A stretch of 64,000 nt of DNA from Vicinamibacterales bacterium (GTDB lineage: Bacteria; Acidobacteriota; Vicinamibacteria; Vicinamibacterales; UBA8438). Below are positions 1,992-39,911 of the stretch, piece after piece; within the stretch, counting starts at the first letter, position 1, and each line of letters begins with the position of its first letter. The position numbers and the translations under genes were made by a program. Below the pieces are notes generated by a model. That model did no database searches. It was not told where the DNA came from and saw nothing but the letters and a program-made list of their open reading frames with translations. The DNA lies in NCBI GenBank assembly GCA_965204175.1, contig OZ241978.1:4121330-4185329 (forward strand), given 5' to 3'.

Positions 1992-1993
1992 CG

Positions 1994-3514: not shown

Positions 3515-4785
3515 CAGTCGCCGTCGTCCCCTTCCCCGCCAGCGCCCTCCAACGCCAAGTCGCGGCTGCGTCGGACAATGTCGATCAGCTTGTCCTGCGG
3601 CTTCAATGTCAGCGACTGGAACTGGAACCCCGCCGACTCGGCCTGCGCGTAGGCCTCCTCGTAGAGAGAGCGCGCCTGCCCGCGATCATGTTCGACCGTC
3701 TCGGTGGAACCGTCCGCGCGCACCAACTCTAGCGGCGCGCTCCCCTCGCACACCAGGTCGCAGCGCGACCGCAGAGCGTAGCCGTTTGCATCCTGTTCGG
3801 CCAGCGCCAGGAGGCCGAGCGCGGCAAGGAGCGCGCGTCCGGAGGCGCTACGGTCGCCGTTGCCGAAGCGCAGCCGTCGCAGTCCGGCCAACGTGACGAC
3901 AGCGCGATGCTCGATGTAGTCGCAGGTCACGCCGAGCGGCTCGACGGTGGGCGTCACGTTCCCGTGGTTGATCACCGACGGCTTGCCTGCCTTGTCTCCC
4001 TTCTTGCGAGAGAACAGGATCGGACCCTTATTGGCCCGGGCGGCTTCAGTCTCGCGCGGCGTCCAGTCCTGGTCGTTGTCGGCAGAGTGATAGATCTTGA
4101 CGTTCTTCTGAACGCCCAGCGGATCGATGCGGCTGCCCGTCCGCCGACCCGAGGTAGACGGGTCCGCGTCGCCAGTCCCCCGGTGGTCGACCGGCGTGTC
4201 GATCGCCATGATCTCGGAGACCAGCGCCCTCGGAAACTTGGCGCCCAACCCGCCGCCCTCACCCTGGCTATGCCAAGCGCCGAAGAGCAACGCCGTCGGC
4301 GACAATTCCAGCAGCGCTGTCGCATCCGCGGGCTTCGCTGCCGCGAGGCGCCGTCCCTGATCGGTCTGCATGAGAGGTTCGCCATCCAGCAGACTGTCTC
4401 GCAGGATGGCGTCGTAGACACGGTGCGGGGCCTCTAGCGATGTGATGCGCTCCAGCGGCTGAAGGCCGGCGCCGCTGAAGTCGACCGTCACGTACGGCAG
4501 ACGCAGTCCGTCACCGCCCGTAGCGGAGAGTAGGGCTTCCTCGAGACGGTTGGCTTGACTCTGCACGCTGTCGACGAGCACGCACCACGCTTCCCGACCG
4601 TCGACCCGTCGCCGTTCGAACACGTGCCGTGGCGGATCGTTCTGCCTCGCGGCGGGATAGGTCGGTGGAAAGATCTTGTCGCCCACGCCGCCGACGGGTT
4701 GGAGACGCCTCACCCGGCGAAAGGCAGCGTGGCGGGCAAGTGCATCGGTCAGCCTGGAGAGGGTCAGATCCGGAGCTGTGGTCAT
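3514..4785 (-). CDS. csb1: Type I-G Cas7 backbone Csb1
   Basis: LQPVGG..KIFPPTY, VLVDSVQSQANRLE, SLEAPHRVYDA, PTALLFGAWHS, LRSRCDL motifs. Confidence 0.93.
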   Translation of the reverse strand: MTTAPDLTLSRLTDALARHAAFRRVRRLQPVGGVGDKIFPPTYPAARQNDPPRHVFERRRVDGREAWCVLVDSVQSQANRLEEALLSATGGDGLRLPYVTVDFSGAGLQPLERITSLEAPHRVYDAILRDSLLDGEPLMQTDQGRRLAAAKPADATALLELSPTALLFGAWHSQGEGGGLGAKFPRALVSEIMAIDTPVDHRGTGDADPSTSGRRTGSRIDPLGVQKNVKIYHSADNDQDWTPRETEAARANKGPILFSRKKGDKAGKPSVINHGNVTPTVEPLGVTCDYIEHRAVVTLAGLRRLRFGNGDRSASGRALLAALGLLALAEQDANGYALRSRCDLVCEGSAPLELVRADGSTETVEHDRGQARSLYEEAYAQAESAGFQFQSLTLKPQDKLIDIVRRSRDLALEGAGGEGDDGD

Positions 4786-4955
4786 CTTCGGTCGTCCATC
4801 AGAAGAGTCGTGTCAGTTGGTCGTGATTGGCGAACTCGTCGCGCTGGGTGCCGCAGCAGGCCGCTGCAGGGGCGGTCTCGCGGTACTGTCCTCGTGCGAC
4901 GATTCTCCGGGGAGAACCGATTCCAATCTCCGTGCGGACAGGTTTACGAAGCCCA

Positions 4956-4987
4956 CTGTCAGATCCTGTCAGTACGGAGCGTCAGAT
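4956..4987. promoter_or_regulatory. Phased (CT)GTCAG direct repeats in the divergent csb1 / cas4-cas1 intergenic region; possible operator
   Basis: CTGTCAG at 4956 and 4966 (10-bp spacing), GTCAGAT at 4981. Confidence 0.35.
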
Positions 4988-5423
4988 TCCTATGCCAACT
5001 TCCGGCGTGTGTAGCCGACGGACCTGGCGCCGACGGTGACATCCTTGAACGGTCTGTGATCTCTTCGGTCGTCCCCCTGGGCGGCTACAGTGGTGAACCG
5101 CCGCGAGCGTGTGTCCTCGAAGCGCCTCGACCGCGCGGGGGGCACACGATTCGGATCCAGGCATTCAACAGTTTGAGTTCACTGCCCTGGATCGTCTTCG
5201 ACCTCCGCGTGGATCGTCTCGGATCGCGTTGTTCTGTTCGATGCCGCCCCGTGCTCGATCCACGTCCCGTGGCTGATGTCCGATCCGTAAGTTCGGTCCA
5301 AGCTGGTTGTGCCGGTAGCGTCGTGATGAGTCGGAACGATCCCCCGGCCGGAAGGTTTCGCCCTACCGCTGAGCGGCGGATCGTCCGAAACAACTCCTTG
5401 CCGCCAAACGGGAGGTAGCCGCC

Positions 5424-7133
5424 GTGCCAGCTCCGGACCTTCGCGAGCCGCCGGTTCAGCCCGTCTCCTCCGATGCGCCGCCGCTCGTGCCGGCGCGCAT
5501 GCTCAACGAGTACGTCTACTGCCCGCGGCTGGCCTACCTGGAGTGGGTCCAGGGCGAGTGGGTCGACTCCTCCGACACGGTCGAGGGTCGCCACGCGCAC
5601 CGTCGTGTCAACCGTGACGGCGGGAAGCTGCCGCCACCTGCGGAGGTGAACAAGGCGGAGAAGCTGCACGCGCGCTCGATCACCTTGTCCTCGGAGCGCC
5701 TGGGCCTGATCGCCCGGATGGACCTGATCGAGTCGGACGGCGGCAAGGTGACGCCGGTCGACTACAAGCGCGGCAAGCGCCCGCACGTCGAGCGCGGGGC
5801 CTACGATCCCGAGCGGGTGCAGCTCTGCGTGCAGGGGTTGCTCCTGCGCGAGCACGGGTACGAGTGCGACGAGGGGGTGCTCTACTTCGTCGGGAGCCGA
5901 GAACGGGTTCGCGTGGAATTCGACGACGAGCTCGTCACCGCGACCCGGCAAGCCGTGGAGGGGTTGCGAAGCGTTGCCGCCCAGGGCGTGATCCCGCCGC
6001 CTCTCGAAGACAGTCCCAAGTGCCCGCGTTGCTCGCTGGTCGAGGTCTGTCTGCCGGACGAGGTCCACCACCTCAAGAGAGCCGACGTATCGCCGCGGCC
6101 CATCGCCGTCCCCTGCACCGATGCGCTGCCGCTCTACGTCCAGGCCCGCCGGGCCAAGGTCTCCAAGTCAGGCGAGACCCTTGTCGTGACGGTGGAAGAC
6201 GCGGAATTGGCGACGGCGCGGCTCGAGGAGACATCGCAGGTCGTGGTCATGGGCAACGTCTACCTGACAACGCCCTGCCTGCACGAGCTGATGTGGCGCG
6301 GGATTCCCGTCACCTGGCACAGCTACGGCGGCTGGTTTTTCGGCCACACCATGGGCAACGGTCACAAGAACGTCGAGTTGCGGACGGCCCAGTATCGGGC
6401 GAGCTTCGATGAGCGGACGTGCCTGCGATTCGCTCGCGGATTGGTGAGCGCCAAGATCCAGAACTGCCGCACGTTGCTGCGGCGCAACTGGAAACGCGAG
6501 GAGAGCAGCAATCCCGTCCTCGTCGACCTGAAGTACGACAGCCGCCGGGCCCTTCGCGCGGAGGCGCTGCCGGAGCTGCTCGGTGTCGAGGGGACCGCCG
6601 GGGCACGTTACTTCCGCTCCTTCGCCGCGATGTTGAACGAGTCGGAATCGGACGCGGAGTTCTCGTTCGACTTCGCGACGCGCAACCGGCGTCCCCCGAA
6701 GGACCCGGTCAACGCGCTCCTGTCTTTCGCGTATACGCTGCTGGTGCGGTCCTGGACGGTCACGCTGGTCGCCGTGGGGTTCGATGCCTACCGGGGCCTC
6801 TACCATCAACCGCGCTACGGCCGCCCGGCGCTGGCGCTCGACCTGATGGAGCCGTTCCGCCCTCTGGTCGCCGATTCGGTGGTGGTCCAGGCGATCAACA
6901 ACGGTGAGGTCCGGCCGAACGATTTCAAGACGGCGGCTGGAAGCGTCAACCTGACCGAGGCCGGCAGGCGGCGGTTCATTTCCACCTTCGAGCGACGCCT
7001 GGGCCACGAGGTTGTGCACCCGCTCTTCGGCTACCGGGTCAGCTACCGCCGCCTGATGGAGATGCAAGCCCGCCTGTTCGGCCGCTTCCTTCTCGGCGAG
7101 CTTACTGAGTATCCCAATTTCACGACGCGGTGA
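5424..7133 (+). CDS. cas1: Cas4/Cas1 fusion
   Basis: Cas4 Fe-S cysteines (YCPR, PKCPRCSLVEVC) and PVDYKRG, then Cas1 motifs GVEG, RNRRPPKDPVNALLS, YHQ, LALDLMEPFRP; GGAGG RBS before GTG. Confidence 0.95.
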   Translation: MPAPDLREPPVQPVSSDAPPLVPARMLNEYVYCPRLAYLEWVQGEWVDSSDTVEGRHAHRRVNRDGGKLPPPAEVNKAEKLHARSITLSSERLGLIARMDLIESDGGKVTPVDYKRGKRPHVERGAYDPERVQLCVQGLLLREHGYECDEGVLYFVGSRERVRVEFDDELVTATRQAVEGLRSVAAQGVIPPPLEDSPKCPRCSLVEVCLPDEVHHLKRADVSPRPIAVPCTDALPLYVQARRAKVSKSGETLVVTVEDAELATARLEETSQVVVMGNVYLTTPCLHELMWRGIPVTWHSYGGWFFGHTMGNGHKNVELRTAQYRASFDERTCLRFARGLVSAKIQNCRTLLRRNWKREESSNPVLVDLKYDSRRALRAEALPELLGVEGTAGARYFRSFAAMLNESESDAEFSFDFATRNRRPPKDPVNALLSFAYTLLVRSWTVTLVAVGFDAYRGLYHQPRYGRPALALDLMEPFRPLVADSVVVQAINNGEVRPNDFKTAAGSVNLTEAGRRRFISTFERRLGHEVVHPLFGYRVSYRRLMEMQARLFGRFLLGELTEYPNFTTR

Positions 7134-7137
7134 TCCG

Positions 7138-7425
7138 ATGGAGCACTTGTACATCGTGGTCTACGACATCAGTGACCCCAAGCGGTGGCGCCGCGTCTTC
7201 AAGCTGATGCACGGATACGGCGAGTGGGTGCAGCTGTCCGTCTTCCAATGCCGCCTGAGTCGCCGCCGTCACGCCGATCTGGTTGCCCGCCTCGACGGAG
7301 CGATCGATCATGCAGAGGATCACGTCGTGCTGGTCGACATCGGCGTAGCGGACGGCGTCGAACCGCGCGTCGTGAGCCTGGGAAAGAAGTTCCAGGCCGT
7401 GCGCCGGGAGCCGGTCATCGTATGA
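7138..7425 (+). CDS. cas2: Cas2
   Basis: [29 protein letters not shown]; 95 aa, directly after cas1. Confidence 0.95.
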
Positions 7426-7526
7426 GGTTCCCCGCCACACGCGAGCGAGCGCTCAGTGCCGCCATCGTCCTGTGCGCCACGCAGGTGCAGATGTCGACAC
7501 CAACTCGCCTTCGTGATTTCAAACGG

Positions 7527-7607
7527 CGCGTAACGGGTGTATACGGCCATGCCGGGCCCGATGGCGGCCTGGGCGAGGTCGACGGGGGCGATGTTGCCGG
7601 TCTGGAG
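7527..7607 (-). repeat. Inverted repeat arm L (pairs with 15982-16062)
   Basis: 77/81 identity by manual alignment; the terminal 30 bp CCCGGCATGGCCGTATACACCCGTTACGCG are identical. Confidence 0.85.
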
Positions 7608-9932
7608 CAGGCGTAATGCCTGCGGGAGTTCAGACCGGAGCGCGGTGAGGCACTCGCGGCGGGTGATCCTCCGGGCGTCGGAGGCGCGTCGGCGGCATAC
7701 GAGGACGATGCTGGAGGCGAGGATGTTGGCATTGATGCCAATGATCTTATTTGCCAGCTCCGTTCTGACCGGCCATGTTCCCGTTACCGCGAAGCCGGAT
7801 TGGATCACGGCCTCGAGGAACGTCTCCCATCCGGTCCGTCTCGCACCCGATGCGCTTCTACTCTCCGACTGCTTGAAGGCGTAGTAGACCGTGATCGGGA
7901 ACCCGGGATGTGCCCGTTCCGCAAGTCGGTGCAGCGCTTGGGTCATACCGTCGAGGAAAAAGGCCTCCGCGGCATCCTTACCGCCATGTCGGTAGGGTGC
8001 GGCAACCAACTCCTCGGCCTTCGGAACGGCCAGAGTCGTGAACAGATCCGGGAACGCGGGTCTCAGCGAGCGACGGAGCCAAACGTAGAAGAAGTCGGAT
8101 AGGTCCGCGTAACCGATGTTGTCGTAGTACGGCGGATCCGTGGAGACGACCCGGTCGGAACTCAGCACTTGAATGCCTGCATCAGCTTGGGTGGCAGTGC
8201 CCACCGACGAGCCGTACCCGGCCGCGACGCCCTCAATGCTCTCGGCTGTCCAATCGGCAGCACCCAAGAAACTGCCCGTTCCAGTGAGAAGCGTGTTCAA
8301 CTCAGCGTAGTCCCATGTCATCGGAATGCTCTGCCGAGCAAACGTGTTTCGGGTTGAATCCCGCTCCGTGAACCACGTACAGATTGTCGAACCTCGGTCC
8401 GCGAGTTTCGACAACGCGAACGCCAAATACACCGCTACCGCGTCCGCGCAGGCCGTCGCGCCCGTGCCGCCGGCGCGCAGCGGTCGGTCGTCGTCGGGAA
8501 ATCCCGCCGCGAAAGCGTCCCGCCGGACTCGCTCGGTCGCTTCGCCCACTAGGTCCGAGAAGGTCGTCAGCGCGAGAAGCTGGCGCGAGGTGAACAAGTC
8601 GGCGAACGTGGGAAGACCGTAGTTCGGTGTCTTGAAGTCCCGCGGGTTGTTGGGCAGCGGCATGTCCGGTTGCCATGTCGCTACGAGATCCCGTGCGCTG
8701 GCCTCATGCAGCGGTGTCGGCGCCAGATAGATCCGGCCGCGGTCACCTTGCGCCACGATTGCCATCAGGCGCGCGCCCAGGCCTCCTTGCTGGCCATACG
8801 AGCGAATGTGATCGTAGGTCACGGGCACACCCGACATGAGACATCGGAACGCGCTTCGCTTGCCTGCCGTCGTGCCGAGTTTCACGGCCGCTGCGTCTGG
8901 CGGTGTACCAACCTTGACCGTGAAGCGGTAACTCCGCCCCTCGATCACCGGCTCGACGTACGCCTCCTTACCCTTCTTCGTCGACAACATGAACGTCGAC
9001 GCGAGCGGCACGTCCACATCCGCGAACGCCGGGTTCGGGCTCTTCACCGTCCGTGCCCAAAGCCACGCGATGACCGTCAGCTTGCGGCCCTCGTACGGCT
9101 TCAGATCGGGCCGGTCCCACACCATCTCCCGCGTGATCTCGACCGGCGGGTACAGATGGCCTATCCGTTTCTCCGCCTCGTCGCGCATCCACCGGCCGTA
9201 GTACCGCACGTCGTCGGCCAGCCCCCGCGCGCCTTTCCATCTCCGGGCCACGACCGTCGGCTCGTTCCGCGTCTCCGGGTTCACCGGCGGCCGGCCGGCG
9301 AATCTCGGGGGGATCTCGATCATGGCCTTGCTGATGAGCACGGCCACCGGATTCAGATCGCTGGCGTGCGCTTCGAGTCCCAGTCGCTGCGCTTCGAGCG
9401 GCAGGGAGCCGCCGCCGGCGAACGGGTCGTGGAACGCGGGGAGCGTGTGCCGGTCGAACAACTCCGCCGCGCGCGGATGATCGGCGTGCTCGGCGCAGGC
9501 CCGCCGCCAGCTCTGCCAGATCTCCGTGCGCGCTTGTTCGAGCACTGCTTCGTCGGTCGTGCTCTCCCAGAGAACCAGCTTCTCCAGAATCCTGAACAGA
9601 CGCTCACGTTCGAGCTCTGCCGCCGTGTCGGCGAGCGCTTGCCGGTCGCCGATCTCGCCTCGACGCTTCTTCAGCGCCCGCTGCGCCGCGCGTTTCTTGG
9701 CCGGGTCCGACAGCAGCACGTCGACGTACGCCGACGGATCGTCGACCATTTGGGCGAAGATCACCGCCCTCGCGGCGGCCAGCGGCCGACGCGCCCACCA
9801 CAGGTGCAAAGTCGACGGATGGCCGTGGCGGATCGACTTCTCCCGCGCCGCCGCCTTGTTGATGGCGTCGAGCGGCAGAGCCACCTCGATCAACTTCCGG
9901 CGAGTCCGGTCACGGGAGACTCCGACGATCAC
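7527..9932 (-). pseudogene. DUF1156 adenine-specific DNA methyltransferase, 3'-truncated second copy (possible alternative allele)
   Basis: [35 protein letters not shown]. Similarity to 13693-16662 stops abruptly after MAVYTRYA (7527), so ~200 C-terminal aa are missing. GTG 9932 overlaps the antitoxin stop. Confidence 0.85.
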
Positions 9933-10192
9933 GACCGCAGGTCTCTCAGCACGTCCAGCGCCGTTCCGGCGGCCGGCGACTCGAACTTCAGTTGCCGCAA
10001 CCGGGCCACGACTATACGCCGCTGATCGTCGGCGTCCCGGTCGACGAAGCGTTCCCGGTAGTCCTTCAGACTCACCAGGGCCGCGGCGGGGGTTCGCCGA
10101 CGGCACACCAGAATCGGCTCGCCGCCGCGTTCGAGCTGGTCGAGCACCTTGCCGAGGGATTGACGAAGCTCCAGGGCGTTCACGGTTTCCAT
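9929..10192 (-). CDS. Phd/YefM-family antitoxin (no adjacent toxin)
   Basis: [41 protein letters not shown]; 87 aa. Confidence 0.8.
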
Positions 10193-10202
10193 GTCTTTCG
10201 GC

Positions 10203-10231
10203 AGCATCGCGCCTGCACAGTTGAGTGTCAA
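10203..10231 (-). promoter_or_regulatory. Sigma70-like promoter for the antitoxin and truncated DUF1156
   Basis: TTGACA-17 bp-GATGCT on the minus strand, 10 nt before ATG 10192. Confidence 0.6.
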
Positions 10232-11172
10232 GCTAACGGCGTCCCCGCTTCCGGCCGCGCTGCGGGCCGGCTCGAAGACGAGTCGACAGCGATGCACGTG
10301 GTCCGCTCCGCCAGGACGGACGCCAGCGCGACCCCGACGCGTTCGGCCGCCGCTTCGGTCTCCCGGTCGCTGACGTGCGCGTAGCGCAGAGTCATCCGTG
10401 TCCCGGCATGGCCGAGCAGGCGCGAGACCACCGGCAGCGGCACGCTCTGCAGCACGGCGTAGCTCGCGAACGTGTGGCGCAGATCGTGCAGGCGCACGTC
10501 CTCGATCCCGGCCTGCCGGCGCACCTTGCGCCATAGCGAGAGTTCCGACGAGCGGGCCTTCGATGCATCGGTCAGCGAAGGAAAGACGTACGGGCTCTCT
10601 GTCCGGGGCTGGCGCGCGAGGATGTTCCGGGCTGGCGCGTTCAGGAATATGGGGCGCGGTCCCGTCTTCGTGTCCATCAGGTGAAGCGTGTCTTCACCCG
10701 CCTCGGACCAGCGCAGGTTCAGGAGTTCGCTCTTCCGGCACCCGGTCAACAGCAGCAGGCGAACGACGTCCGCCTGTTGCCGTCCCGAACCGCGCCCCCG
10801 GTGGGCATCCAGCGCCGCGTGCAGGCGCTCGATTTCCGCCTGCGACAGGAAGCGGGTGGGTTTCGGACGTGGGTTGCGCCTCACGCCGCGGGTGGGATTG
10901 GCCGAGACGTGGCCGCAGACGATGGCGTGGTTGAAAATCTGGCGCAACACGTCCAGGGTCCGGTTCGCGCCGCCAGGCGCGGACCGGCTGTAGTCGTCGA
11001 ACCACCGGTGCACGGCTGCCCGGTCGATGCGGTCGAGCGGCAGCGGCCCGAAGACGGGCAGCAGTTGCGTTCGCAGGGCGCCGGCCGTGCGCCGCCGCGT
11101 CGAGGGCTTGCAACGCTCGTGACAGGCCGTCTTCCAGGTCCCCGCCGCGAACTCCTCGAAGGTCGGGATCAC
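10228..11172 (-). CDS. Tyrosine recombinase/integrase (no obvious arm-binding domain)
   Basis: [27 protein letters not shown]: full R-K-H-R-H-Y set; GTG start overlaps the upstream stop (GTGA). Confidence 0.88.
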
Positions 11173-12116
11173 CGCCCAACCGCCAGGGCGATCCCGACGG
11201 TCTCCACCGCCTCCCGGGCCATCGCGTCCGCGAAGTGGATGTACTTCAACGTCGTCGCAGGATCGCGGTGTCCGAGCAGGCGGCCGATAGACAGGACGGT
11301 CTCCCCCCGCCGGAGGGCGAAGCTGGCATAGCTGTGGCGCAGGTCGTGCAGCCGGAGGCCGTGCAAGTCCGCCGCCGTGCACAGCCGCCGCCAGAAGCCG
11401 TACAGGGTATCCGTCGTCATGGGACCGTCTTCGTTCGACGCGGGAAGGATCCAGCGGCCGGTCCGGGGAAGGCGGTCGAGCACCGAGCGGGCCGGTAAAG
11501 ACAGCCAGACGGTCCGCGGACCGGTCTTGCCGTCGCGCAGGAAGAGATGGCCGGCGCGATAGTCCCTCCAGTGGAGCGTCCGGATCTCGCCCTGGCGGCA
11601 GCCCGTCAGCAGCAGCAGACGGACGGCCGCCGCCGGCGCCGGCGCGGCGCCCTCCCGCGCGGCCAGTGCCGCGCCGAGTCGGCGGTATTCGTCGAGGGTC
11701 AGGAATCGTTCGCGGCCCCGCCGCCGATAGCGCCGGATGCCCAGGCACGGATTGCCGCCCTCCGGCCGATACCCGTGGATCTCGGCGTGGCGCAGGATCG
11801 CCGAGAGTATCGGCAGCGACCGGTCGGCCGCGGCCGGCGTCGCGTGCAGGGAAGCGAACCAACGCTGCACGTGAGCGCGCGTGACATCGGCGATGGGACG
11901 GCCGCGGAACCCCGGCAGGATCTGATTGGCGAGATACGACCGATTGACCGCCAGGGTTCCCGGTTTCCAGACACGCGCGTAGTGGCGGAAAGCCTCTTCG
12001 GCGACCGTCTCGAAAACCGTTTCTCTGCCGGCGGCCGACGAGGCGTCAGGGTGAATGTGAACCGCAACGGTGGTCATGAGTGCTTTCTCCGGAACTTCCG
12101 GGCGACGGCGCGTCAA
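11169..12116 (-). CDS. Tyrosine recombinase/integrase (no obvious arm-binding domain)
   Basis: LTGCRQGE, DGKTG, HDLRH, LLGH, TTLKY; start uncertain (12116 or 12077). Confidence 0.88.
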   Translation of the reverse strand: MTRRRPEVPEKALMTTVAVHIHPDASSAAGRETVFETVAEEAFRHYARVWKPGTLAVNRSYLANQILPGFRGRPIADVTRAHVQRWFASLHATPAAADRSLPILSAILRHAEIHGYRPEGGNPCLGIRRYRRRGRERFLTLDEYRRLGAALAAREGAAPAPAAAVRLLLLTGCRQGEIRTLHWRDYRAGHLFLRDGKTGPRTVWLSLPARSVLDRLPRTGRWILPASNEDGPMTTDTLYGFWRRLCTAADLHGLRLHDLRHSYASFALRRGETVLSIGRLLGHRDPATTLKYIHFADAMAREAVETVGIALAVGR

Positions 12117-12158
12117 GCTGGCCGTCGATGGCAGTATCGACAGCGCGCGGCGTTACCC

Positions 12159-12186
12159 TTGCTCTCGGACGGAACCGTGATATGGT
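12159..12186 (+). promoter_or_regulatory. Promoter for vapBC, probably leaderless
   Basis: TTGCTC-16 bp-TATGGT with an extended TG, 7 nt before ATG 12194; no Shine-Dalgarno. Confidence 0.5.
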
Positions 12187-12193
12187 TTTCCAT

Positions 12194-12430
12194 ATGAAGA
12201 CGACGCTCAACATCGACGACTCGGTGATGCAGCGCCTGCGGGAAGAGGCGGCCCGCCGTGGAACGACGATGTCGGCGCTCGTCGAGGCGGGGCTCCGGCG
12301 CGTGCTGGCCGAGCCCGAGGCCGCCCGGCAACCCGAGATCCTGCCCCCACTACCGTCATGGAACGGCGGTGGGGAACTTGTCGACATCTCGGATCGCGAT
12401 GCTCTCTACAGGGCGATGGAAGAGGAATGA
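12194..12430 (+). CDS. vapB: VapB-like RHH antitoxin
   Basis: MKTTLNIDDSVMQRLREEAARRGTTMSALVEAGLR. Confidence 0.85.
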   Translation: MKTTLNIDDSVMQRLREEAARRGTTMSALVEAGLRRVLAEPEAARQPEILPPLPSWNGGGELVDISDRDALYRAMEEE

Positions 12431-12431
12431 C

Positions 12432-12872
12432 GTGCTGTTGTTCGACACCAACGTACTGCTGTACGCCGCCAACAGAGATTCGACGTTGCATCGTCCGTGC
12501 CGCCAGCGGCTCGGAGAAGCGCGTCGCGACCCGTCCCCGGCGTTTCTCACCTGGAGCGTCTGCTACGAGTTCCTGCGGGTGGCCACGCACCCTCGCGTAC
12601 TCCCGTCACCCTGGAAAGCGCGCGATGCATGTCGCTTCGTGTCGGACCTGCTCGCGTCGCCGGGATTCGATCTGCTGATTGCGACGCCGCGGCATCAGTC
12701 AGTGCTGGCGCAGACCCTGTCCGAGCTGCCCGACCTCCGCGGCAACGTGATGCACGACGTGCACACGGCGGTGCTGATGCGCGAGCACGGCATCAGCCGG
12801 ATCTGTACTCGCGACACCCACTTTCGTCGGTTTCCGTTCCTCACGGTCGTCGACCCGTTGAGCACGTCGTGA
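12432..12872 (+). CDS. vapC: VapC PIN-domain toxin
   Basis: FDTNVLLYA, CYEFLRVATHPR, GNVMHDVHTA, TRDTHF. Confidence 0.88.
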   Translation: MLLFDTNVLLYAANRDSTLHRPCRQRLGEARRDPSPAFLTWSVCYEFLRVATHPRVLPSPWKARDACRFVSDLLASPGFDLLIATPRHQSVLAQTLSELPDLRGNVMHDVHTAVLMREHGISRICTRDTHFRRFPFLTVVDPLSTS

Positions 12873-12950
12873 GACCGGCGATGCCCGCGCCCGGCGAATG
12901 ATGTATTCCGTCGCTACGGCCGCCGCTGGCGTGAAGATTGCTTCATCAAC

Positions 12951-12964
12951 GATTGCATGCAATC
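12951..12964. promoter_or_regulatory. Palindromic operator upstream of the fitA-like antitoxin
   Basis: Perfect palindrome GATTGCATGCAATC, flanked by repeated TCATCAACGA. Confidence 0.55.
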
Positions 12965-12991
12965 ATCAACGAAGGCGGCACGAGGAGGCAG

Positions 12992-13234
12992 ATGGCAAGC
13001 ATCACGATCCGCAACCTGTCGGCGGAATCGAAGATCAGGCTCAAGCGAAGCGCCGAGGAACGCGGCTGCAGCCTCGAAGCCTTGGCACGGTCGATCCTCG
13101 ATCAGGCCGCCGAGCAGGCCCCGGCTGCGAACAGATTTCCGCACAACCTGATTGCGCTCGTCGAGCCCGGTGAAGACATCGAGCCGTTCATCCGCGAACA
13201 CAGACACCCACCGGAACCGGTGGACCTGACGTGA
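12992..13234 (+). CDS. FitA-like RHH antitoxin
   Basis: MASITIRNLSAESKIRLKRSAEERGCSLEALARSIL; GAGGAGG RBS. Confidence 0.85.
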   Translation: MASITIRNLSAESKIRLKRSAEERGCSLEALARSILDQAAEQAPAANRFPHNLIALVEPGEDIEPFIREHRHPPEPVDLT

Positions 13235-13644
13235 TCCTGGTCGATACCAATGTCCTGTCGGAACTGACCAGACCGGAGCCGGCAACCCGAGTGGTCGCGT
13301 GGCTTGAAGTCAACGAGCCGGCGCTTGCGGTCCCTGCGATGGCGCTGGCCGAACTGCGGTACGGGATCGCACGGCTGCCCCAAGGCCGACGGCGATCCAG
13401 CCTGCTGCGCTTCTGGCAGACGACATGCGACCAGTTCCGAGGCCGGATCTTCTCGTTCGATCGCCGCGCCGCCGAGGTGTACGGAGACGTGGCAGCCGCC
13501 GCGGAGCGGGCGGGCCGACGACTCAACATCCAGGATGCACAGATCGCAGCGACCGCATTGGTGCACCGCATGCCCATCGCGACGCGCAATGTCAGCGACT
13601 TCGAGGCTGCCGGTGTCGCAATCGTGAATCCCTGGGACTGCTGA
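13231..13644 (+). CDS. vapC: FitB/VapC PIN-domain toxin
   Basis: MILVDTNVLSEL, AELRYG, DAQIAATA, ATRNVSDF..NPW; GTGA overlap. Confidence 0.9.
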   Translation: MILVDTNVLSELTRPEPATRVVAWLEVNEPALAVPAMALAELRYGIARLPQGRRRSSLLRFWQTTCDQFRGRIFSFDRRAAEVYGDVAAAAERAGRRLNIQDAQIAATALVHRMPIATRNVSDFEAAGVAIVNPWDC

Positions 13645-13692
13645 CGGATTCCGCCGGACAGGCACTCCTCGACCCAGTGAGGCCGAACCCGC

Positions 13693-16662
13693 ATGTGCAG
13701 GAAACTGATCGAAGTCGCGCTACCGCTGGATGCCATCAACGCGGCTGCGGCGCGGGAGAAGTCCATCCGCCACGGCCATCCGTCGACGCTGCACCTGTGG
13801 TGGGCGCGGCGGCCGCTGGCGGCGGCGCGCGCCGTGATCTTCGCGCAGATGGTCGACGACCCATCCGAGTACGTCGACGTGCTGCTGTCGGACCCGGCGA
13901 AGAAGCGGGCTGCCCAACGGGTTCTGAAGAAGCGTCGAGGGGAGACTGGCGACCGGCACGCGCTTGCCGACACGGCGGCAAAGCTCGAACGCGAGCGTCT
14001 GTTCGGGATCCTCGAAGAACTGGTCAAGTGGGAAAACACGACCAACGAGGACGTGTTGAGGAGGGCGCGCACGGAGATCTGGCAGAGTTGGCGGCGGGCC
14101 TGTGCCGAGCACGTCGATCATCCGCGCGCCGCGGAGTTGTTCGACCGGCACACGCTCCCCGCGTTTCACGATCCGTTCGCCGGCGGCGGCTCGCTGCCCC
14201 TCGAAGCCCAGCGACTGGGCCTCGAAGCACACGCCAGCGATCTGAATCCGGTGGCGGTGCTGATCAACAAGGCGATGGTCGAAATTCCGCCGAAGTTCGC
14301 CGGCCGGCCGCCGGTGAACCCAGTGGCGCGGAACGAACGGACGGTCGTTGCCCGGACGTGGCGGGGCGCGCAGGGGCTGGCCGACGACGTGCGGCACTAC
14401 GGCCGGTGGATGCGCGACGAGGCGGCGAAACGGATAGGCCATCTGTACCCGCCGGTCGAGATCACGCCGGAGATGGTGCGGGAGCGGCCCGATCTGAAGC
14501 CGTATGAAGGCCGCAAGCTGACGGTCATCGCTTGGCTTTGGGCGCGGACGGTGAAGAGTCCGAACCCGGCCTTCGCTGATGTGGACGTGCCGCTCGCATC
14601 GACGTTCATGCTGTCGACGAAACAGGGCAAGGAGGCGTACGTCGAGCCGGTGATCGAAGGGCGGGGCTACCAGTTTGAAGTGAAAGTCGGTGCGCCCCCG
14701 GATGTAGACGCCGCCAAGGCCGGGACCAAGCTGTCGCGCGGGGCGAACTTTCAGTGCCTGATGTCGGGTTCGCCGATTGCTGGCGATTACATCAAGGCCG
14801 AGGGGCAGGCGAAACGGTTGGGCGCCCGGCTGATGGCCATCGTGGCGGAAGGTGATCGTGGTCGCGTCTACTTGGCCCCGACTACAGAGCATGAAGATGC
14901 CGCCGGGATCGCGATTCCCGAATGGCATCCTGACGGTGATGTTCCGGCACGTCTGACCGGCGGAACATGTGTGCCATACGGGTTATCAACGTGGGGCGAC
15001 CTCTTCACTCGTCGCCAACTCGTCGCCCTGACGACCTTCTCCGACCTGGTAGGCGAGGCGACCGAGCGCGTCCGGCGAGACGCTGTCGCGGCGGGATTTC
15101 CCAACGACAACCGACCGCTGCGTGACGGCGCCACAGGCGCGACGGCCTGCGCGGACGCGGTAGCGGTGTATTTGGCTTGTGTGGTCTCAAAGGTCTCAAA
15201 CGTCAACTCGTCGATTGCTTCATGGATGAGCGATCGCGGTGCTTTCCGGGAGACTTTCGCCCGACAAGCCATCCCCATGGTGTGGGATTTTGCCGAGGCG
15301 AATCCGCTTGCAGATGTTGGGGGCAGTTTAGCGGCCGCCCTTACCAAAGGGGCGATGGTGATCGATGCTTTTCCTACACGGACACTTGGATGGAGTGGTC
15401 AACAAGACGCAGCAAGTCAAACAACCACGTCCGGCATGCTGGTATCTACGGATCCACCGTACTACGATAACATCGGGTACGCTGACCTCTCGGACTTCTT
15501 TTACGTCTGGCTGCGCCGGTCATTGAAGCCTGTGTTCCCAGAGCTCTTCGCCACGCTCACGGTGCCGAAGGCCGAGGAACTGGTGGCGACACCGTACCGC
15601 CACGGGAGCAAGAAGGAGGCCGAAGCGTTCTTCCTCGACGGCATGACGCAGGCGCTGCACCGGCTAGCGCAACAGGCACACCCCGGCTTCCCCATCACGG
15701 TCTACTACGCCTTCAAGCAATCCGAGGCGAGGGGGGACACTGGAACTGCCAGTACTGGTTGGGAAACGTTCCTTGATGCCGCGATCCGGTCCGGCTTCGA
15801 GATCACCGGCACTTGGCCGATGCGGACCGAGGGAGCCGGCAGAATCATCGCAAGAGACGCAAACGCCTTGGCCTCCAGCATCGTCCTCGTCTGTCGCCGC
15901 CGCCCCGCCGACGCGCCATCCGCCACCCGGCGGGAGTGCGTGACCGCCCTCCGGTCTGAAATCCCGCCCGCACTCCACCTCCTCCAGACTGGCAACATCG
16001 CCCCCGTCGACCTCGCGCAGGCCGCGATCGGCCCCGGCATGGCCGTATACACCCGTTACGCGAAGGTGCTCGACGCAGCCGGCAACCCGATGTCGGTACG
16101 CGAGGCGCTGGCGCTGATCAACCAGATTCTCGACGAGGTGCTCGCCGAGCAGGAGGGCGACTTCGACGCCGACAGCCGCTGGGCGTTGGAGTGGTTCGAT
16201 CAGTACGGCTTCCAGGCAGGCGCCTACGGCGACGCCGAAATACTCTCCAAGGCGAAGAACACCGCCGTAGCGGGAATGGTGGAGGCGGGTATCCTGAAAT
16301 CGCGGGCCGGAAAGGTGCAGCTCCTGCGACCGGCGGAGTTGCCTCCCGACTGGAATCCCGAGACGGACGTGCGGTTGACTGCGTGGGAGATGGTCCATCA
16401 CCTGATCCGTGTGCTGGAGGGAGACGGCGAAGAGGCGGCGGCGGCGCTCGTCGGCAAGCTCGGCGGCCGGGCGGAGGTCGCACGCGAGTTGTGCTACCGG
16501 CTGTATGCGCTGTGCGAGCGCCGCAAGCGCGCGGCGGAGGCCCTGGCCTACAACGGGCTCGTGCAGAGCTGGCCGGAGATCAGCCGCCTCGCCGTCGCGG
16601 GCGGCACGGAACAGGGCGGCCTGTTCGGCGACGACGCCGGGGACGTTGGAGAGGAAGCGTGA
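13693..16662 (+). CDS. DUF1156 adenine-specific DNA methyltransferase, full length
   Basis: [16 protein letters not shown] (SAM binding), STDPPYYDN (catalytic), YYAFKQ; 989 aa. Confidence 0.92.
15982..16062 (+). repeat. Inverted repeat arm R (pairs with 7527-7607)
   Basis: Same 81-bp segment inside the full-length DUF1156 gene. Confidence 0.85.
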
Positions 16663-16696
16663 CCGCCGCCGCGCGCCGCCGGCGGGGGAGCTGTCC

Positions 16697-18257
16697 ATGT
16701 CGTTGATGTCTCGGGAGCTGCACCAGGTCTGGGACGCGCTGCGCGCCAGCAAGGGGGAGCGCGACGAGGCGCTGGCGGAAGTCCGCATCCAGAAGCTGCG
16801 CGGCATTCGGGATCTCCGCTTCACGTTCGAGTATCCGGTCTGCGTCCTCGCCGGACCGAACGGCTGCGGCAAGTCGACCGTGCTGTTCGCCTGCGCCTGC
16901 GCGTACGACGTGCCCGGACGGCCGGCACGCGACTTCGCCCCGGGCACCTTGTTTCCGGACTTCACCAGCCGGCAGCAGGACGTATCGTCCGATGCGGTGC
17001 AGGAGACCGATATCGAGTTCCACTACCTGCACCGGGGCGAACGGGTCTCCATGTCCTGGAGGCGCCGCCGGTCGTGGAGACAACACTTCACCAGCCGCAA
17101 CGGCGAACGACAGCCGCAACGGCCCGTCTACTGCGCACCCTCGCCAAACCTCACCAACCCCTCCGAGGTGCGCAGCCTGCTGCGGCTCGGCCGCCGGCAG
17201 GTGCGCGCCGCGGCGTCCGACGCCGAGCTGCTGACCTTCGCCCACCGCATCCTGCCGTGGCGCTACCGCGGCCTGTCGGTCATCAGCGGACCGGAGAACG
17301 ACCTGCTGTTCGCCGAGATCGAGGACCCCGGACGGACGCGCTATTCCGAGTTCCGCATGTCCTCGGGAGAACGGCCGATCCTGCGGATCTCCAAGGAGGT
17401 CGCGCGGCTCGACGCGGCACTGGTCCTCATCGACGAGATAGACACCGGCCTGCATACCTACACGCAGCAGCAGGCGATGCTCGAACTGCAGCGCAGCGCG
17501 CTGCGCCGCAACCTGCAGATCATCGTGGCGTCGCACAGCCCGGTCATCCTCGACAGCGTGCCGGCGGAGGCCCGGATATTCCTCGATCGCGACGACGACA
17601 CCGGAGAGGTGCGCCGCGTGCCGGCCCATCGCGACCTCTTCCAGAAGGCGCTGTACGGCGCCTCGCAGGGCCAGCTCTCCATACTGTGCGAGGACGCGGT
17701 CGCCGAGGGCGTGATTCGCGGTGTGCTCGACGTGCTGAACGTCGAGCTGGAGCTGCAGCACGGCGACGTCGTCATCGGGCGCAATTCGGGGCGGGACGAG
17801 TTCCCGGGACACGTCCGCACGCTGTCGAAGTTTCGACCGGCTGTCCAACTTCATCCTGGTCCTCGACGGCGACTCGCGGGGGCTGGAGGAAGAACTGCAT
17901 GCCATTGCCCAGCGGCACGGACAAGCCGTGCACGTGTTGTTCCTGCCGGGCGACGGCCCGCCGGAGCAGTGGTTGTGGGACACCGTGCGAGAACAACCGG
18001 ACGCGTATGCGGAACGTCTCGGGCTGAGCGCGGCCGACATGGAGCGATCGATGCGCCACTTCGAGCGCCTGGTCGACGGCGCCGTGCAGCAACGGGAGGA
18101 CATGGCCAAGGTCGCCATCCGGTCCCTGGCGCACCGGCTCCAGCGCATGGTCCCGGACGTCGCCCGCATCGTCGGCCGGCACGAAGCGCGGCCGGAAGCG
18201 CTGTACGAGCTGGTGTACGGGCTGAAGAAACTGATCGAGCAGTGGCGGCGATTGTGA
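16697..18257 (+). pseudogene. ABC/AAA ATPase with TOPRIM-like C-terminus (OLD-like nuclease), frameshifted
   Basis: GPNGCGKST, MSSGE, LIDEIDTGLH, ASHS, ILCED. A frame change near 17832 continues as RLSNFILVLDGD...EQWRRL to the stop at 18257. Confidence 0.75.
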
Positions 18258-18291
18258 CGCTCGAGGACCCGCCCGGCATCGTCGCGTCAGG

Positions 18292-18474
18292 CTACTCGCG
18301 TTCGAAACCGTGGCTGTCGAACTTCAACGTCCGGCTGTTCTCGGTCACCGTTCTCACCACGTGATCCGGCGCGCTGGCGGGAATGTCCGCCTCAATGTCC
18401 AGCGTCACCGGCACGTTGGCCTCCACAAGAACCGCCAAGTGCGTGATCACCTCGTCGGCGATGCGATCGGCGTC
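18292..18474 (-). repeat. Duplicated 3' end of the DUF499 gene (direct repeat of 31905-32087)
   Basis: Ungapped 183 bp, 22 mismatches counted by hand (~88%); encodes DADRIADEVITHL...SHGFERE*. Confidence 0.92.
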
Positions 18475-19334
18475 ATGAGACCATAGCCGACCGCGGTCCT
18501 GGCGCCGAGGCCGAGAAGGTCCAGCCCGTTCAGGAGGTGCTTCCAGGTCCACTCGAACGCGCGCCGCCGTTTATCGGCCTCGCTGGCGTCGCAGAGCAAC
18601 CGCACCAGGAATCGCGCGCCGGCGGACACCGTGAGAAACGGTACGGGATTGGGAGAATCCCAGTCGACCGGTCCCTCGCTCCCCTGCTTCCTGGCGCTCG
18701 CATCGGAAGACTCCCGATCGACCCGGTTCCTGGCGATAGCGTCGTAATACCGTTTGTAGTGAGGCGTCAGGACGTCCACGTCGAGCGTCGGGGGTTCGAC
18801 CGGATACGCGTCCAGGAAACAGACCGCGCCGCGCTGGCGCCGGTCAGAGGGCTGATGGCGCCACGAATCCTCGCTCCCCAGCCAGCGCAGCCGTTCCTCC
18901 GCCCCCCCCTCGTCGAGGAACTGTGACGCCGCCCGGCAGAGGCCCTTCAGTGATGTCGCCGGCAAGTAGGGCACACCCGCCACGCGGTCGAACGTCAAGC
19001 CGTTCTCCAGCGGGTGATCCGCGCCGAGCCCTATGGCGAGCCGCGCTTCCGTCCGCACCGTTCGCTCCTCGATATCGGCGCCCGCAGGCGCGGCGCGCTG
19101 CCTGGCGCGGATGCGATCGAGCAACTCCCCGCCGGCGGCCACATGCTTGTTGTACTCGTTCACGAACGTGCGCAACGCCAGCTCGACAGGTTTCTGTACC
19201 GTTCGTCCGGGCGGATCCCAAAACCGGCCGTAGCGCTCGAACACTAGGCCGGCGTGCGCTCCTGCCGGCAGGGCTGTCGAACCGAACAAGCTCGCTATTG
19301 CCGACCGCTGGTTGACGGGCGGTAGATCAGCCAT
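18447..19334 (-). CDS. cmr6: Type III-B Cmr6 RAMP
   Basis: RLAIGLG..PLENGLTFD..GVPYLPATSLKG, FLDAYP, DVLTPHY, PNPVPFLTV, GLGARTAVGYG. Confidence 0.93.
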   Translation of the reverse strand: MADLPPVNQRSAIASLFGSTALPAGAHAGLVFERYGRFWDPPGRTVQKPVELALRTFVNEYNKHVAAGGELLDRIRARQRAAPAGADIEERTVRTEARLAIGLGADHPLENGLTFDRVAGVPYLPATSLKGLCRAASQFLDEGGAEERLRWLGSEDSWRHQPSDRRQRGAVCFLDAYPVEPPTLDVDVLTPHYKRYYDAIARNRVDRESSDASARKQGSEGPVDWDSPNPVPFLTVSAGARFLVRLLCDASEADKRRRAFEWTWKHLLNGLDLLGLGARTAVGYGLMTPIASPTR

Positions 19335-19779
19335 CGCTCCGCCCTGTTCGTTCGTTCCGTTCCCTGTCCTTCGAGGGCGCGGCGTCCAGCGCTGCGGCGA
19401 GGATCTTCGCTTGGTCGAGAAGCGCCACCGCCTCCGCCTGGACGGCACGGTAGCTTGCGTTGTCTGCTTCGAGACACCAGTCGAGCAGTTGGTGGTCGAC
19501 GTTCGGTTCCTGCCGATCGCGTTCCAGATCCAACAGGGACATCGTCGGGCAGTCGTCGTGCGTGAGCCACTCGATGAGGAGCGTCCGCACCGTCCTGGCG
19601 GCCGCCTCCTTCTCGTCCTTCATCATCAGCGCCAAGGTGGTCGAGAGACCCAGATTGCGCACCTGGACCGGCCGCCGCTTCAGGTCCTGGGCCAGCACCT
19701 TCTTGTCCGTGCTGGCGCTGAGCCGCTGGAAAGCGAACCGCGCCCGACGACGAGACAGGCTGGCGAGGCTAGCGGACAT
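19327..19779 (-). CDS. cmr5: Type III-B Cmr5 small subunit
   Basis: Helical 150-aa protein with RARFAF, PVQVRNLGL, YRAVQAEAVALL; lies between cmr4 and cmr6. Confidence 0.8.
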   Translation of the reverse strand: MSASLASLSRRRARFAFQRLSASTDKKVLAQDLKRRPVQVRNLGLSTTLALMMKDEKEAAARTVRTLLIEWLTHDDCPTMSLLDLERDRQEPNVDHQLLDWCLEADNASYRAVQAEAVALLDQAKILAAALDAAPSKDRERNERTGRSDG

Positions 19780-20827
19780 CGTTCAGGCCCTCCTGGGTCG
19801 CCGCATCCCAGAACGTCCACCAGCACTGGCCGGCGCCGATGGTCTCGTTGCCGCCGAGCTGGATGCGCTGCAGGTGCGCAGCGTGCGCTGTGCCCAGGTA
19901 ACCGGTCGGGGTGCGCTCGCGGTCCGGCCATGCGCGGTCCAGATCCGGCGCGCCGACGAAAGCGTAGAGCAGCGTATCCGGGGGCAGCGCTTCCTCGTAC
20001 CACAGGTTGCCGCTGTATTCGCGGTCGTTCGATTCGTCCTTCCATGTGTCGGTCGTCTTGCCCGGCGTCAACTGCGTGCGCGCCGCGACCGGCAGCGTGC
20101 GGTGCGCCAGATCGAGCAGATCCTCGTCGGGGACGACGACCAGGGCGGACGGCATCTCGTGGCGTCCCAGCGCTTCGTCAGGCGCGAGCAGCCCGACGAG
20201 CTGGTTGGCGAGCGCGCCGACCATCGCCTGCTCGACGACCTGCAAGGCGTCGTAGCAGAGATCTTCGAGCACGAGCGGCCGGCCGGCCAGACTCCGGTCG
20301 GCCACCATCGCTTGGCGTTCGCGCCCGTCTCCGCCAGCGACCCCGGCCTCGCCGTCGCCGATACCGCGCGGGTTCGGACACACCCAGTTGGCGGGTAGGA
20401 CACCCTCGACGTCGAAGGCGCGGAGCTCACGTTCCAGGCGGCGGAGCACCAGCGGGCTCGTCGCGTAGAGAAAGGGCCGCTGGAGCGAGCGCACAGGGAG
20501 CGCCAGGAGCCTAGCGTCGGTGAACAGCAGGTTGCCCGCCCTCAGCTCCGTACCCTTGTTCCCCTCTTCGCCCCGTGCTTCCGCATTGCCGTCGTCCGGC
20601 GGCCCGCCCGGTTGCGGCGGTTCCGAACCGAAGAGGTCGACGACGCGCTCCTTGGCGTATTTCTCGACCACGTCGCGCGCCACCCCCTTCAGGCCGGTAC
20701 CCGGAACGAACGGCAGCCCAGTATGCGACTCGCGCGCCACGGGGAGGTCCACCGCGCCCGCGGTCTGACCCGTGCCGCAGTGCAGGGGTGAGATCGTGTA
20801 GATGCCGTACAGCCTGACGTGCTTCAT
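19769..20827 (-). CDS. cmr4: Type III-B Cmr4 RAMP (target RNase)
   Basis: SPLHCGTG, VDLPVARE (catalytic Asp present), PGTGLKG, DARLLALPVRS, LWYEEALP, QLGGNETIGAG. Confidence 0.95.
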   Translation of the reverse strand: MKHVRLYGIYTISPLHCGTGQTAGAVDLPVARESHTGLPFVPGTGLKGVARDVVEKYAKERVVDLFGSEPPQPGGPPDDGNAEARGEEGNKGTELRAGNLLFTDARLLALPVRSLQRPFLYATSPLVLRRLERELRAFDVEGVLPANWVCPNPRGIGDGEAGVAGGDGRERQAMVADRSLAGRPLVLEDLCYDALQVVEQAMVGALANQLVGLLAPDEALGRHEMPSALVVVPDEDLLDLAHRTLPVAARTQLTPGKTTDTWKDESNDREYSGNLWYEEALPPDTLLYAFVGAPDLDRAWPDRERTPTGYLGTAHAAHLQRIQLGGNETIGAGQCWWTFWDAATQEGLNDVR

Positions 20828-20832
20828 GCCGT

Positions 20833-31904: not shown

Positions 31905-35279
<3,375 letters not shown>

Positions 35280-35997: not shown

Positions 35998-39576
<3,579 letters not shown>

Positions 39577-39911
39577 CGTCGCAAACGGTATCAGGCCAAA
39601 CGACATACGCGCCAGGAACGCCGCCGTTCTATCAATGGCCGCCATTCACCCTCCACGACCGATCGCGGCTGCTCGGCGACCCTCATCTGCGAAACCGCGT
39701 CCAGAAGGAGAACGTAGGCGCGGAGAGGCGCGCACGACCTTGCCGGCCACGACCTCGCGTCTGCTCGGCGACGGGCATCCTGCGGCGCCCGCCGTTACGA
39801 AGGGCTGCTTCATCACGTGATGTTCCATCGAGTGTCGTCCGTGCCGACGGTTCCGGGTGCCAAGCCGCTCGGATCTCAGCGCGGCGAACGGGCAGTTTGC
39901 CCCTCCGAGCG

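Follow-up and report, generated by a model that had tools for sequence, protein, structure and literature searches.

Programmed DNA inversion is known to alter several kinds of defense methyltransferase. A described case close to the one considered here is the BREX type 1 methyltransferase gene pglX of Lacticaseibacillus rhamnosus, which undergoes programmed inversions (Milman et al. 2023; PMC9881135), and the same report names Class 1 DISARM drmMI and Cj0031-like type IIG genes as further targets. Among type I restriction-modification systems, hsdS invertons have been described, for example, in pneumococcal SpnIII/PsrA and in Bacteroides fragilis (PMC7672463; PMC7096588; PMC7641763). Here we examine a locus from a Vicinamibacterales bacterium (genome G000; 6.76 Mb in a single contig), within a stretch of 64,000 nucleotides (nt) that we refer to as the window (G000:C1:4121330-4185329) and whose numbering is used throughout unless another source is given. 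We consider it likely that the 8,536 bp at 7527–16062 are a programmed two-state inversion cassette in hmaB, the methyltransferase gene of an Hma system. Hma systems are BREX-related, widespread candidate antiphage systems that have been reported in 26 phyla (PMC8565338). They have been renamed Type-1 DUF499-centered BREX-related systems, and their HmaB-type methyltransferases are placed close to those of BREX type 3 (PMC12839542).

In the mechanism that we propose, the cassette would hold two operons. One runs IntB > IntA > Phd > hmaB-N(α) on the minus strand, the other runs from two VapBC-like pairs into hmaB-N(β) on the plus strand, and each would end in a whole HmaB N-terminal module, residues 1–791, including an insert of about 400 residues with hypervariable patches. 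The tyrosine recombinases IntA and IntB, probably jointly, would exchange strands at 30-nt cores, and a flip of the cassette would fuse α or β in frame to the C-terminus while the other copy kept a junk tail. As it is mainly the hypervariable patches of the family that set the alleles apart, the two states would be expected to methylate different DNA motifs and to reset what Hma treats as self. What makes this reading probable is a set of observations drawn from comparative sequence analysis: the anatomy of the segment, an in-frame junction, a conserved layout and breakpoint, the presence of both orientations among relatives, the co-evolution of the arms, and purifying selection. We infer that inversion may be ongoing and site-specific, catalyzed by IntA and IntB, and specificity-changing.

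Anatomy of the Segment and Its In-Frame Junction

Two long divergent open reading frames (ORFs), 7320–10106 on the minus strand and 13693–16662 on the plus strand, both match PF06634 (DUF1156; E ~3e-27) and, end to end, the PADLOC HmaB model PDLC00660 (E=0; 1536 and 1254 bits). An earlier note on this DNA had described outward-pointing DUF1156 genes around two tyrosine recombinases, a description that the profile matches bear out. It had also reported an 81-bp inverted match between the genes; the actual match is the whole left copy, 7527–9901 against 13697–16062, in six collinear segments of 72–89% identity. The two proteins are 76% identical across residues 3–790, and the homology breaks off sharply after ...GGCATGGCCGTATACACCCGTTACGCG. 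From there the right copy runs on for 199 codons to 16662. The left copy had been said to end after MAVYTRYA, which is true of the homology but not of the ORF, as the left frame continues through 69 unrelated read-through codons (7320–7526, minus strand), overlaps the 3′ end of cas2 in antisense, and reaches its stop at 7320.

Complementarity between the arms is 88% over their final 139 nt and complete over the final 30, so that the 30 bp of identity given in the earlier note stand up to exact comparison. The left core (7527–7556, minus strand), with which the left arm ends and which may be the crossover site, is an exact inverted copy of the right core (16033–16062, plus strand), which encodes 10 residues and at whose last base the homology between the copies ends. 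With up to three mismatches allowed, these two copies are the only matches to the core, both in the window and in the 6.76-Mb genome, where shuffled sequences lead one to expect none, and no further core-like site was found in 7000–17000 with up to nine mismatches. Besides the core, the two hmaB copies share 18 exact matches of 20–41 nt. A 30-nt identity is unremarkable on its own; what is special about the core is its location right at the homology boundary. An imperfect 4-bp dyad, CGTA...TACG, is present in its sequence.

When 7527–16062 is flipped in silico, the left allele becomes a seamless ORF of 1001 amino acids that starts at its GTG, passes through a junction sequence as in the right copy, and ends at the same stop, 16662; the right allele is left with 858 amino acids, including an unrelated tail. 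This agrees with the earlier suggestion that inversion would fuse either N-terminal allele in frame to the single C-terminus. The segment is thus bounded by inverted repeats that lie within coding sequence and yield alternative in-frame products, and two PF00589 recombinase genes with conserved catalytic residues lie inside it, both as expected of an inverton. Integration of an element into hmaB, with the duplicated parts as attachment sites attL and attR, was considered and rejected because these parts are inverted and not direct.

Judging from the gene order on both strands, the segment is made up of two operons that diverge from each other, and an hmaB N-terminal module closes each of them. 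The minus-strand operon begins with IntB (11169–12116, likely ATG at 12077; PF00589), followed by the Xer-like tyrosine recombinase IntA (10228 to about 11199, start approximate; PF00589, PF22022, PF14659) and a Phd/YefM-type antitoxin gene (9929–10207; PF02604 E 1e-10, TIGR01552), for which no toxin partner was identified. It ends in allele α, the truncated and presumably silent copy of this assembly (7527–9932, about 802 codons; PADLOC HmaB E=0, PF06634), whose GTG start overlaps the Phd stop as GTGA and which contains DUF1156, motif I, the hypervariable insert, and DPPY. The plus-strand operon opens with a VapBC-like pair of a ribbon-helix-helix (RHH) antitoxin and a PIN protein (12194–12872, ATG at 12194), in which PF01850 exceeds its cut-off and the RHH models (DUF6364, FitA-like_RHH, RHH_1) match only below their curated cut-offs. 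A second toxin-antitoxin (TA) pair, FitA-like RHH plus PIN (12938–13644; PF22513 E 8e-12, PF01850 E 3e-16), precedes allele β (13693–16062; PADLOC HmaB, PF06634), which in the assembly is joined to the fixed 3′ part of hmaB (16063–16662, plus strand, read from the ORF). This single-copy part encodes the C-terminal 199 residues and lies outside the segment. A promoter scan of 7000–18600 returned no sigma-70-like site against 0.9 expected, which in so GC-rich a genome is uninformative.

IntA and IntB are about 39% identical, and PF00589 matches the two recombinases with E values of 8e-20 and 6e-18. Using R..K..HxxR..H/W..Y, which we take to be the catalytic motif of tyrosine recombinases, we assign putative catalytic residues R155, K178, H238, R241, H264, and Y273 to IntA and R174, K197, H257, R260, H283, and Y292 to IntB; they are invariant in 6/6 and 8/8 orthologues, respectively. 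The best solved relative of IntA is an XerC-like protein (4a8e). The equivalog cut-offs of XerC, XerD, and XerA are not reached, the best score being 71.7 bits against 220 for XerA, with 61–64 bits against about 330 for XerC and XerD. In a tree of 69 IntA/IntB-like sequences, the eight Hma-linked IntA form one clade (support 100/99) and the eight Hma-linked IntB another (99/98), each nested among Alphaproteobacteria pairs without HmaB nearby. Because each Hma-linked clade is single and well supported, the recombinase pair seems to have entered hmaB once and to have co-diverged since. The wider IntA/IntB family is evidently not Hma-specific. One Alphaproteobacteria metagenome-assembled genome (MAG) holds several diverged IntB-IntA pairs and no HmaB (L036, L037, L042); a Mu-like transposase, a Toprim protein, and cas3 adjoin them.

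Two other methyltransferase profiles match the HmaB copies below their cut-offs (NCBIfam DUF1156_antiphage, only 109 bits against 1000; PF02086, 19.7–20.7 bits against 22). The right copy carries FAGGG at residues 162–166 and DPPY at 587–590, both invariant in 71 family members; we take these to be the S-adenosylmethionine motif I (FxGxG) and the catalytic motif IV of N6-adenine DNA methyltransferases. In an alignment of the two alleles with 71 family members of 73–85% identity, the alleles differ at 188 of 783 aligned positions, and mean column entropy is 1.76 bits at these positions versus 0.47 at identical ones (Mann-Whitney p 8e-61). The differences cluster at residues 401–440, 501–520, and 541–580, between motif I and DPPY, and the variable internal segments that had been quoted earlier are present in the two translations. 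The DUF1156 methyltransferase has been described as an N6-adenine enzyme with a target recognition domain inserted after core strand 2 (PMC12839542); the allele-variable patches coincide with that location and may be the parts that read DNA. An AlphaFold2 model of the 989-residue protein, built with 71 close homologues, is too poor for the patches to be placed on the structure (mean predicted local distance difference test score, pLDDT, 53.4; predicted template modeling score 0.29), its best-predicted stretch being residues 820–970 in the C-terminal part (pLDDT ~78–92). In a fold search, residues 588–740 weakly resemble Rossmann-fold methyltransferases (best Z 6.0), with a similarly weak match to Trm14 (Z 5.9, root mean square deviation 3.3, 71 aligned), and the C-terminal domain has no clear match.

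The left, truncated copy has no stop over 790 aligned codons. Nei-Gojobori estimates of synonymous (dS) and nonsynonymous (dN) divergence, from a script written for this analysis, give dS 0.82, dN 0.18, and dN/dS 0.22 between the left and right copies; over 15 pairs, including full-length orthologues, dN/dS ranges from 0.17 to 0.29. The silent copy thus appears to be under purifying selection, and both alleles look functional.

Recurrence, Orientation, and Arm Evolution in Relatives

We surveyed G000 with 40 relatives, as well as an evenly drawn sample of 401 genomes from the phylum. The layout of truncated HmaB, IntA and IntB, and full HmaB plus ATPase recurs in the relatives G001, G002, and G014, where the left copy ends at residue 790–797; in G002 it does so as far as the contigs reach, a contig end interrupting the full copy. 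Two genomes from other families, G184 and G220, whose HmaB and Int proteins are only 64–72% identical to those of G000, have the same layout, with a truncated copy that ends at residue 789–790. A profile scan of genome contigs with the IntA alignment found an HmaB pair at at least one locus (L061; 1 of 80 among the matches listed), in a Vicinamibacteria MAG, as a variant of the layout in which homology ends at about residue 897. An exact scan of metagenome contigs for the 30-nt core gave no matches.

Two further hmaB arrangements were seen in these genomes. The MAG with L061 has a second hmaB pair around IntA/IntB, both copies full length (L195; G428:C2:1-20000, 2643–7847 / 14796–20000). Its inverted repeat, 97% identical over no less than 5.2 kb, takes in the 3′ ends as well as downstream genes; it may have arisen by a large inverted duplication in recent time or be an artifact of assembly. 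In G001, a solitary hmaB N-terminal module (L023; G001:C1:3460000-3476000, 5983–8415) ends four residues past the usual point (...FTRYTKVLD), with no partner copy or recombinase within 6 kb.

In every case, IntB>IntA precedes one of the hmaB modules and points the same way. If this module is called α, then α is the truncated copy in G000, G014, G220, and L061 and the copy joined to the C-terminus in G001 and G184. Both orientations of the cassette, with conserved end points, are accordingly found among related genomes; the earlier note had proposed that a single orientation in deep reads and relatives would speak against inversion. G000 and G001 have 4.7 kb of the cassette in common at 91% identity, a stretch that takes in the recombinases and TA genes and the opening 1.48 kb of the right copy of G000. 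With respect to the flank that bears the C-terminus and the ATPase, this stretch lies in opposite orientation in the two genomes. The G002 contigs break in repeats, and both arm variants appear linked to one 55-nt node that reaches 10 nt beyond the core, as either a mixed population or a 10-nt flank common to both would produce.

The arms themselves carry a further signal. In all five complete pairs (G000, G001, G014, G184, and G220), they share genome-specific synonymous variants in their last 30–36 nt, and arm identity ends within a few bases of the same codon: after TACGCG in G000, TACGCGAAGGT in G001, TACGC in G014, TACGGG in G184, and CGCTA in G220. When the last 180 nt are divided into 30-nt bins that begin at the breakpoint and move away from it, the arms of one genome agree on average at 29.4, 28.2, 28.2, 27.2, 26.0, and 26.4 of 30 positions, and arms of different genomes, in means that omit G000–G001 comparisons, at 25.7, 25.7, 24.0, 21.8, 22.3, and 24.6 of 30. 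The arms thus appear to evolve in concert near the crossover point, as expected from repeated recombination there.

The G184 locus (L033, 9414–15468) has a setting of its own. The truncated hmaB is followed after 188 nt by hmaA on the same strand; on the other strand, about 1.8 kb separate hmaC from the full hmaB upstream of it. Placed in this way between hmaA and hmaC, the cassette would have its two internal operons read out into both. One could go further and suppose that the cassette is a self-contained flip module with promoters of its own, driven by IntA and IntB as an obligate heteromeric pair in which each reads one side of an asymmetric site. Such a module would exchange the entire catalytic and recognition unit, and not just a recognition domain, and would also rewire which operon reads into the flanking Hma genes. 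Because hmaA follows the truncated copy in G184 and the recombinases are co-transcribed with one allele, the states would then differ in motif, in recombinase dosage, with a bias in switching rate, and in the level of the defense effector; the truncated product might act as an orphan methylase that protects the genome during the change. We regard this extension as speculative and rather unlikely.

Inversion Weighed against Its Alternatives

Several observations count against a programmed switch. The layout is rare: in the phylum sample, 65 of the 401 genomes have a DUF1156 match (a tally that includes the unpublished genome G087), and only three of these 65 (G000, G184, and G220) have two divergent DUF1156 N-termini within 5 kb. 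No second hmaB copy or IntA/IntB relative (at least 50% identity) was found at any of 80 kept metagenome HmaB loci, of which 32 had the N-terminus and at least 6 kb upstream. G013 and G005 carry rearranged versions of the layout, G001 has a frameshift near residue 550 of its full copy and about 3.4 kb of sequence that breaks up IntA, and the truncated copy of G014 is frameshifted near residue 75. As the loci of G000 and G001 are not positional orthologues (the left flanks are unrelated and the right flank is 77.6% identical), the flipped cassette could reflect transfer and not inversion in situ. No convincing dyad or defined recombinase site was found. Related IntB-IntA pairs occur without HmaB in Alphaproteobacteria MAGs, at 55–65% identity and sometimes in several diverged copies per genome. 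Given the 18 other exact matches between the copies, recombination of the RecA type or gene conversion could explain the homogenized arms. Finally, over-expression of HmaB in Halomonas left T4 infectivity unchanged (PMC11232893).

Assembled sequencing runs add one more such point. We aligned Logan contigs from four runs (X21–X24) to 6000–18000, and no recombinant junction is among the joints listed for these contigs, which break at the repeat. Their ends, at 7556 and 16062, coincide with the borders of the 30-nt repeat and say nothing on inversion, because a k=31 graph must break at such a repeat. A joint of 10305 to 12947 on opposite strands is explained by a paralogous relic at 5.399 Mb. A single X23 contig of depth 15.8, with 37 letters on its shorter side, links 8441 on one strand to 16059 on the other; the former position lies inside a 41-nt exact match between the copies (8422–8462 / 15136–15176) and the latter inside the right core. 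This joint may stem from a related organism in the run and is not used here.

These observations could also be accommodated by a frozen inverted duplication, in which an IntB-IntA/TA mobile module once duplicated and inverted part of hmaB and left the truncated copy as a pseudogene in waiting. HmaB-free IntB-IntA pairs beside transposase and defense genes would fit such a history, as would the rarity of the layout, the decayed variants (G001, G014, G013, and G005), the solitary L023 copy, the G000 relic at 5.399 Mb, and the lack of flipping among the listed joints of Logan contigs that break at the repeat. A frozen event, however, is difficult to reconcile with a breakpoint and layout that persist where HmaB and Int are only 65–75% identical, with the existence of both orientations, with arms that are homogenized within genomes, and with Hma-linked recombinases that fall into clades of their own. 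Moreover, the truncated copy is intact, with a dN/dS of 0.22 at a dS of 0.82. We therefore find this explanation improbable.

Arm homogenization that spans about 180 nt, and not just a short site, might instead suggest that the truncated copy is a silent donor, used through RecA-dependent recombination or gene conversion between long inverted repeats, with the recombinases serving some other purpose. Synonymous divergence between the copies is indeed mosaic (pS, the proportion of synonymous differences, is 0.14–0.27 at residues 201–300 and 451–500 and 0.6–0.85 elsewhere), and many exact matches of 20–41 nt are strewn along the genes. Yet exchange of this kind would not be expected to stop homology in five genomes at the same codon to within a few bases, to flip the entire cassette, as in G001 and G184, or to keep a co-diverging recombinase pair in all eight loci that have it. 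Even the longest perfect matches between the copies would also be rather short to support efficient exchange by RecA. This alternative strikes us as very doubtful. We give scarcely any credence to the idea that nothing switches and that both modules are expressed, the 791-residue truncated product being an extra orphan methylase of a second specificity: the truncated ORF does keep all recognizable methyltransferase motifs, its own translationally coupled start, and purifying selection, and in G184 it is probably transcribed, because hmaA follows 188 nt later on the same strand, but the two cassette orientations among relatives would go unexplained, and the many invariant columns of the C-terminal 199 residues in 71 full-length family members suggest that these residues are needed.

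Genomic Setting and Comparison with Known Systems

To the left of the cassette lies a type I-U/I-G cas operon (3–7425: cas3, GSU0054, GSU0053, a cas4-cas1 fusion, and cas2), and cas2 ends at 7425, 100 nt short of the left arm. No CRISPR array was found in the 64-kb window, in which no 20-mer is present three or more times and Tandem Repeats Finder finds nothing; the cassette occupies the spot where an array would be expected. Downstream of hmaB is an ABC/PtuA-like ATPase (16700–18364, plus strand), a profile match to PADLOC HEC-04 ("Hma-embedded candidate") that is also linked to the HmaB C-terminus in L018, L022, L024, L025, and L032. It is followed by a type III-B Cmr operon (about 18447–26725: Cmr1, Cmr2/Cas10, Cmr3, RAMPs) and a 991-residue ATPase with an LmuB/SMC-like N-terminal P-loop (26712–29687); a 738-residue ORF without a clear family is also among the genes between hmaB and hmaC (16700–31900). 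HmaC, a DUF499 ATPase (31905–35279, minus strand; PADLOC E=0), and HmaA, an SNF2 helicase (35998–39645, minus strand; PADLOC E=0), are encoded 15–20 kb from hmaB on the opposite strand and convergent with it. In G002, HmaC (97% identical) comes directly after the ATPase, without the intervening 13 kb. Because HmaA, HmaB, and HmaC are all present, the locus appears to be a complete Hma system that is split by embedded defense genes, and other defense genes have been reported between Hma genes before (PMC8565338; PMC11232893).

A second, decayed copy of the module lies outside the window at G000:C1:5397334-5401007 (L025, 7188–11683), the relic at 5.399 Mb. It comprises a PtuA-like ATPase that is 92% identical, HmaB residues 2–54 fused to residues 812–988, an IntA fragment (96.5% nucleotide identity over 144 nt, 98% amino acid identity over 48 residues), and a FitA/PIN pair with 97% nucleotide identity to 12932–13686.

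XerC and XerD are paralogous tyrosine recombinases that act as a pair, and the sfx sites of the Rci shufflon are asymmetric. The Hma cassette resembles both in that its paralogous recombinases stand side by side and are kept as a pair, and its sites appear conserved on only one side of the crossover, which would favor inversion. It differs from both as well: IntA and IntB reach at most 72 bits against Xer cut-offs of 220–335, and, unlike the Rci shufflon, the locus has two core copies in the genome, two recombinases, and no multi-segment shuffling. The term "shufflon-like" that had been applied to it was thus too strong for a locus with two sites and two states.

In contrast to the published Hma systems, each of which has a single hmaB in the available sections of PMC8565338, PMC11232893, and PMC12839542, this locus has two N-terminal modules, and its hmaB is convergent with hmaA-hmaC and 15 kb away. 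Phage integrase genes have been noted near 19.1% of hmaA homologues and read as signs of mobility, not as invertases (PMC11232893, in the sections available). Our reading suggests that some of these integrases may be invertases. HmaB is without demonstrated activity or motif, and a natural two-state switch would offer a direct handle on its methylation, on the specificity patches, and on HmaA/HmaC restriction. We found no report of inversion in a DUF1156/Hma methyltransferase in the literature; the available sections of PMC11232893 and PMC12839542 describe none, the main text and tables of PMC9881135, supplements aside, do not place Hma/DUF1156 among the targets (PglX, DrmMI-like, Cj0031-like, and HsdS), and in the accessible portions of the broader literature on phase variation of methyltransferases, only type I and type III systems came up.

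The comparison with pglX is instructive. In both cases a large single-chain defense N6-methyltransferase is, or would be, altered by inversion between inverted repeats, a recombinase gene lies within the invertible region, and the variants differ in a variable, specificity-related region; pglX also has one-inversion variants that, like the truncated copy here, are without the C-terminus. In pglX, however, both gene ends stay in place, the 5′ part as well as the 3′ end, and nested inversions that draw on promoterless partial copies swap a region between them, whereas here 80% of the gene from the 5′ end, including a start and presumably a promoter of its own, would be swapped against one 3′ end through one pair of sites. 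Two conserved recombinases are present here versus one, and the protein family and defense system are different. The drmMI and Cj0031-like genes are likewise defense methyltransferases with fused recognition and catalytic functions, in other families. With the hsdS invertons, the cassette shares tyrosine-recombinase-associated inversion at repeats in coding sequence, which in hsdS swaps target-recognition parts and alters specificity within a clone, as far as the available accounts of these systems go. By the same accounts, inversion in hsdS acts on a small, separate specificity subunit and draws on silent half-genes and several pairs of repeats, usually with a single recombinase, whereas here the catalytic methyltransferase would be the target and there are two complete modules and two states. 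Programmed specificity switching is known for other defense methylases, and the Hma case seems to be new. If our reading is correct, such switching would extend to a fourth class of defense methylase, with an unusual geometry: the swapped part would be a 5′ module that brings its own start along with the catalytic domain, and a pair of recombinases is conserved.

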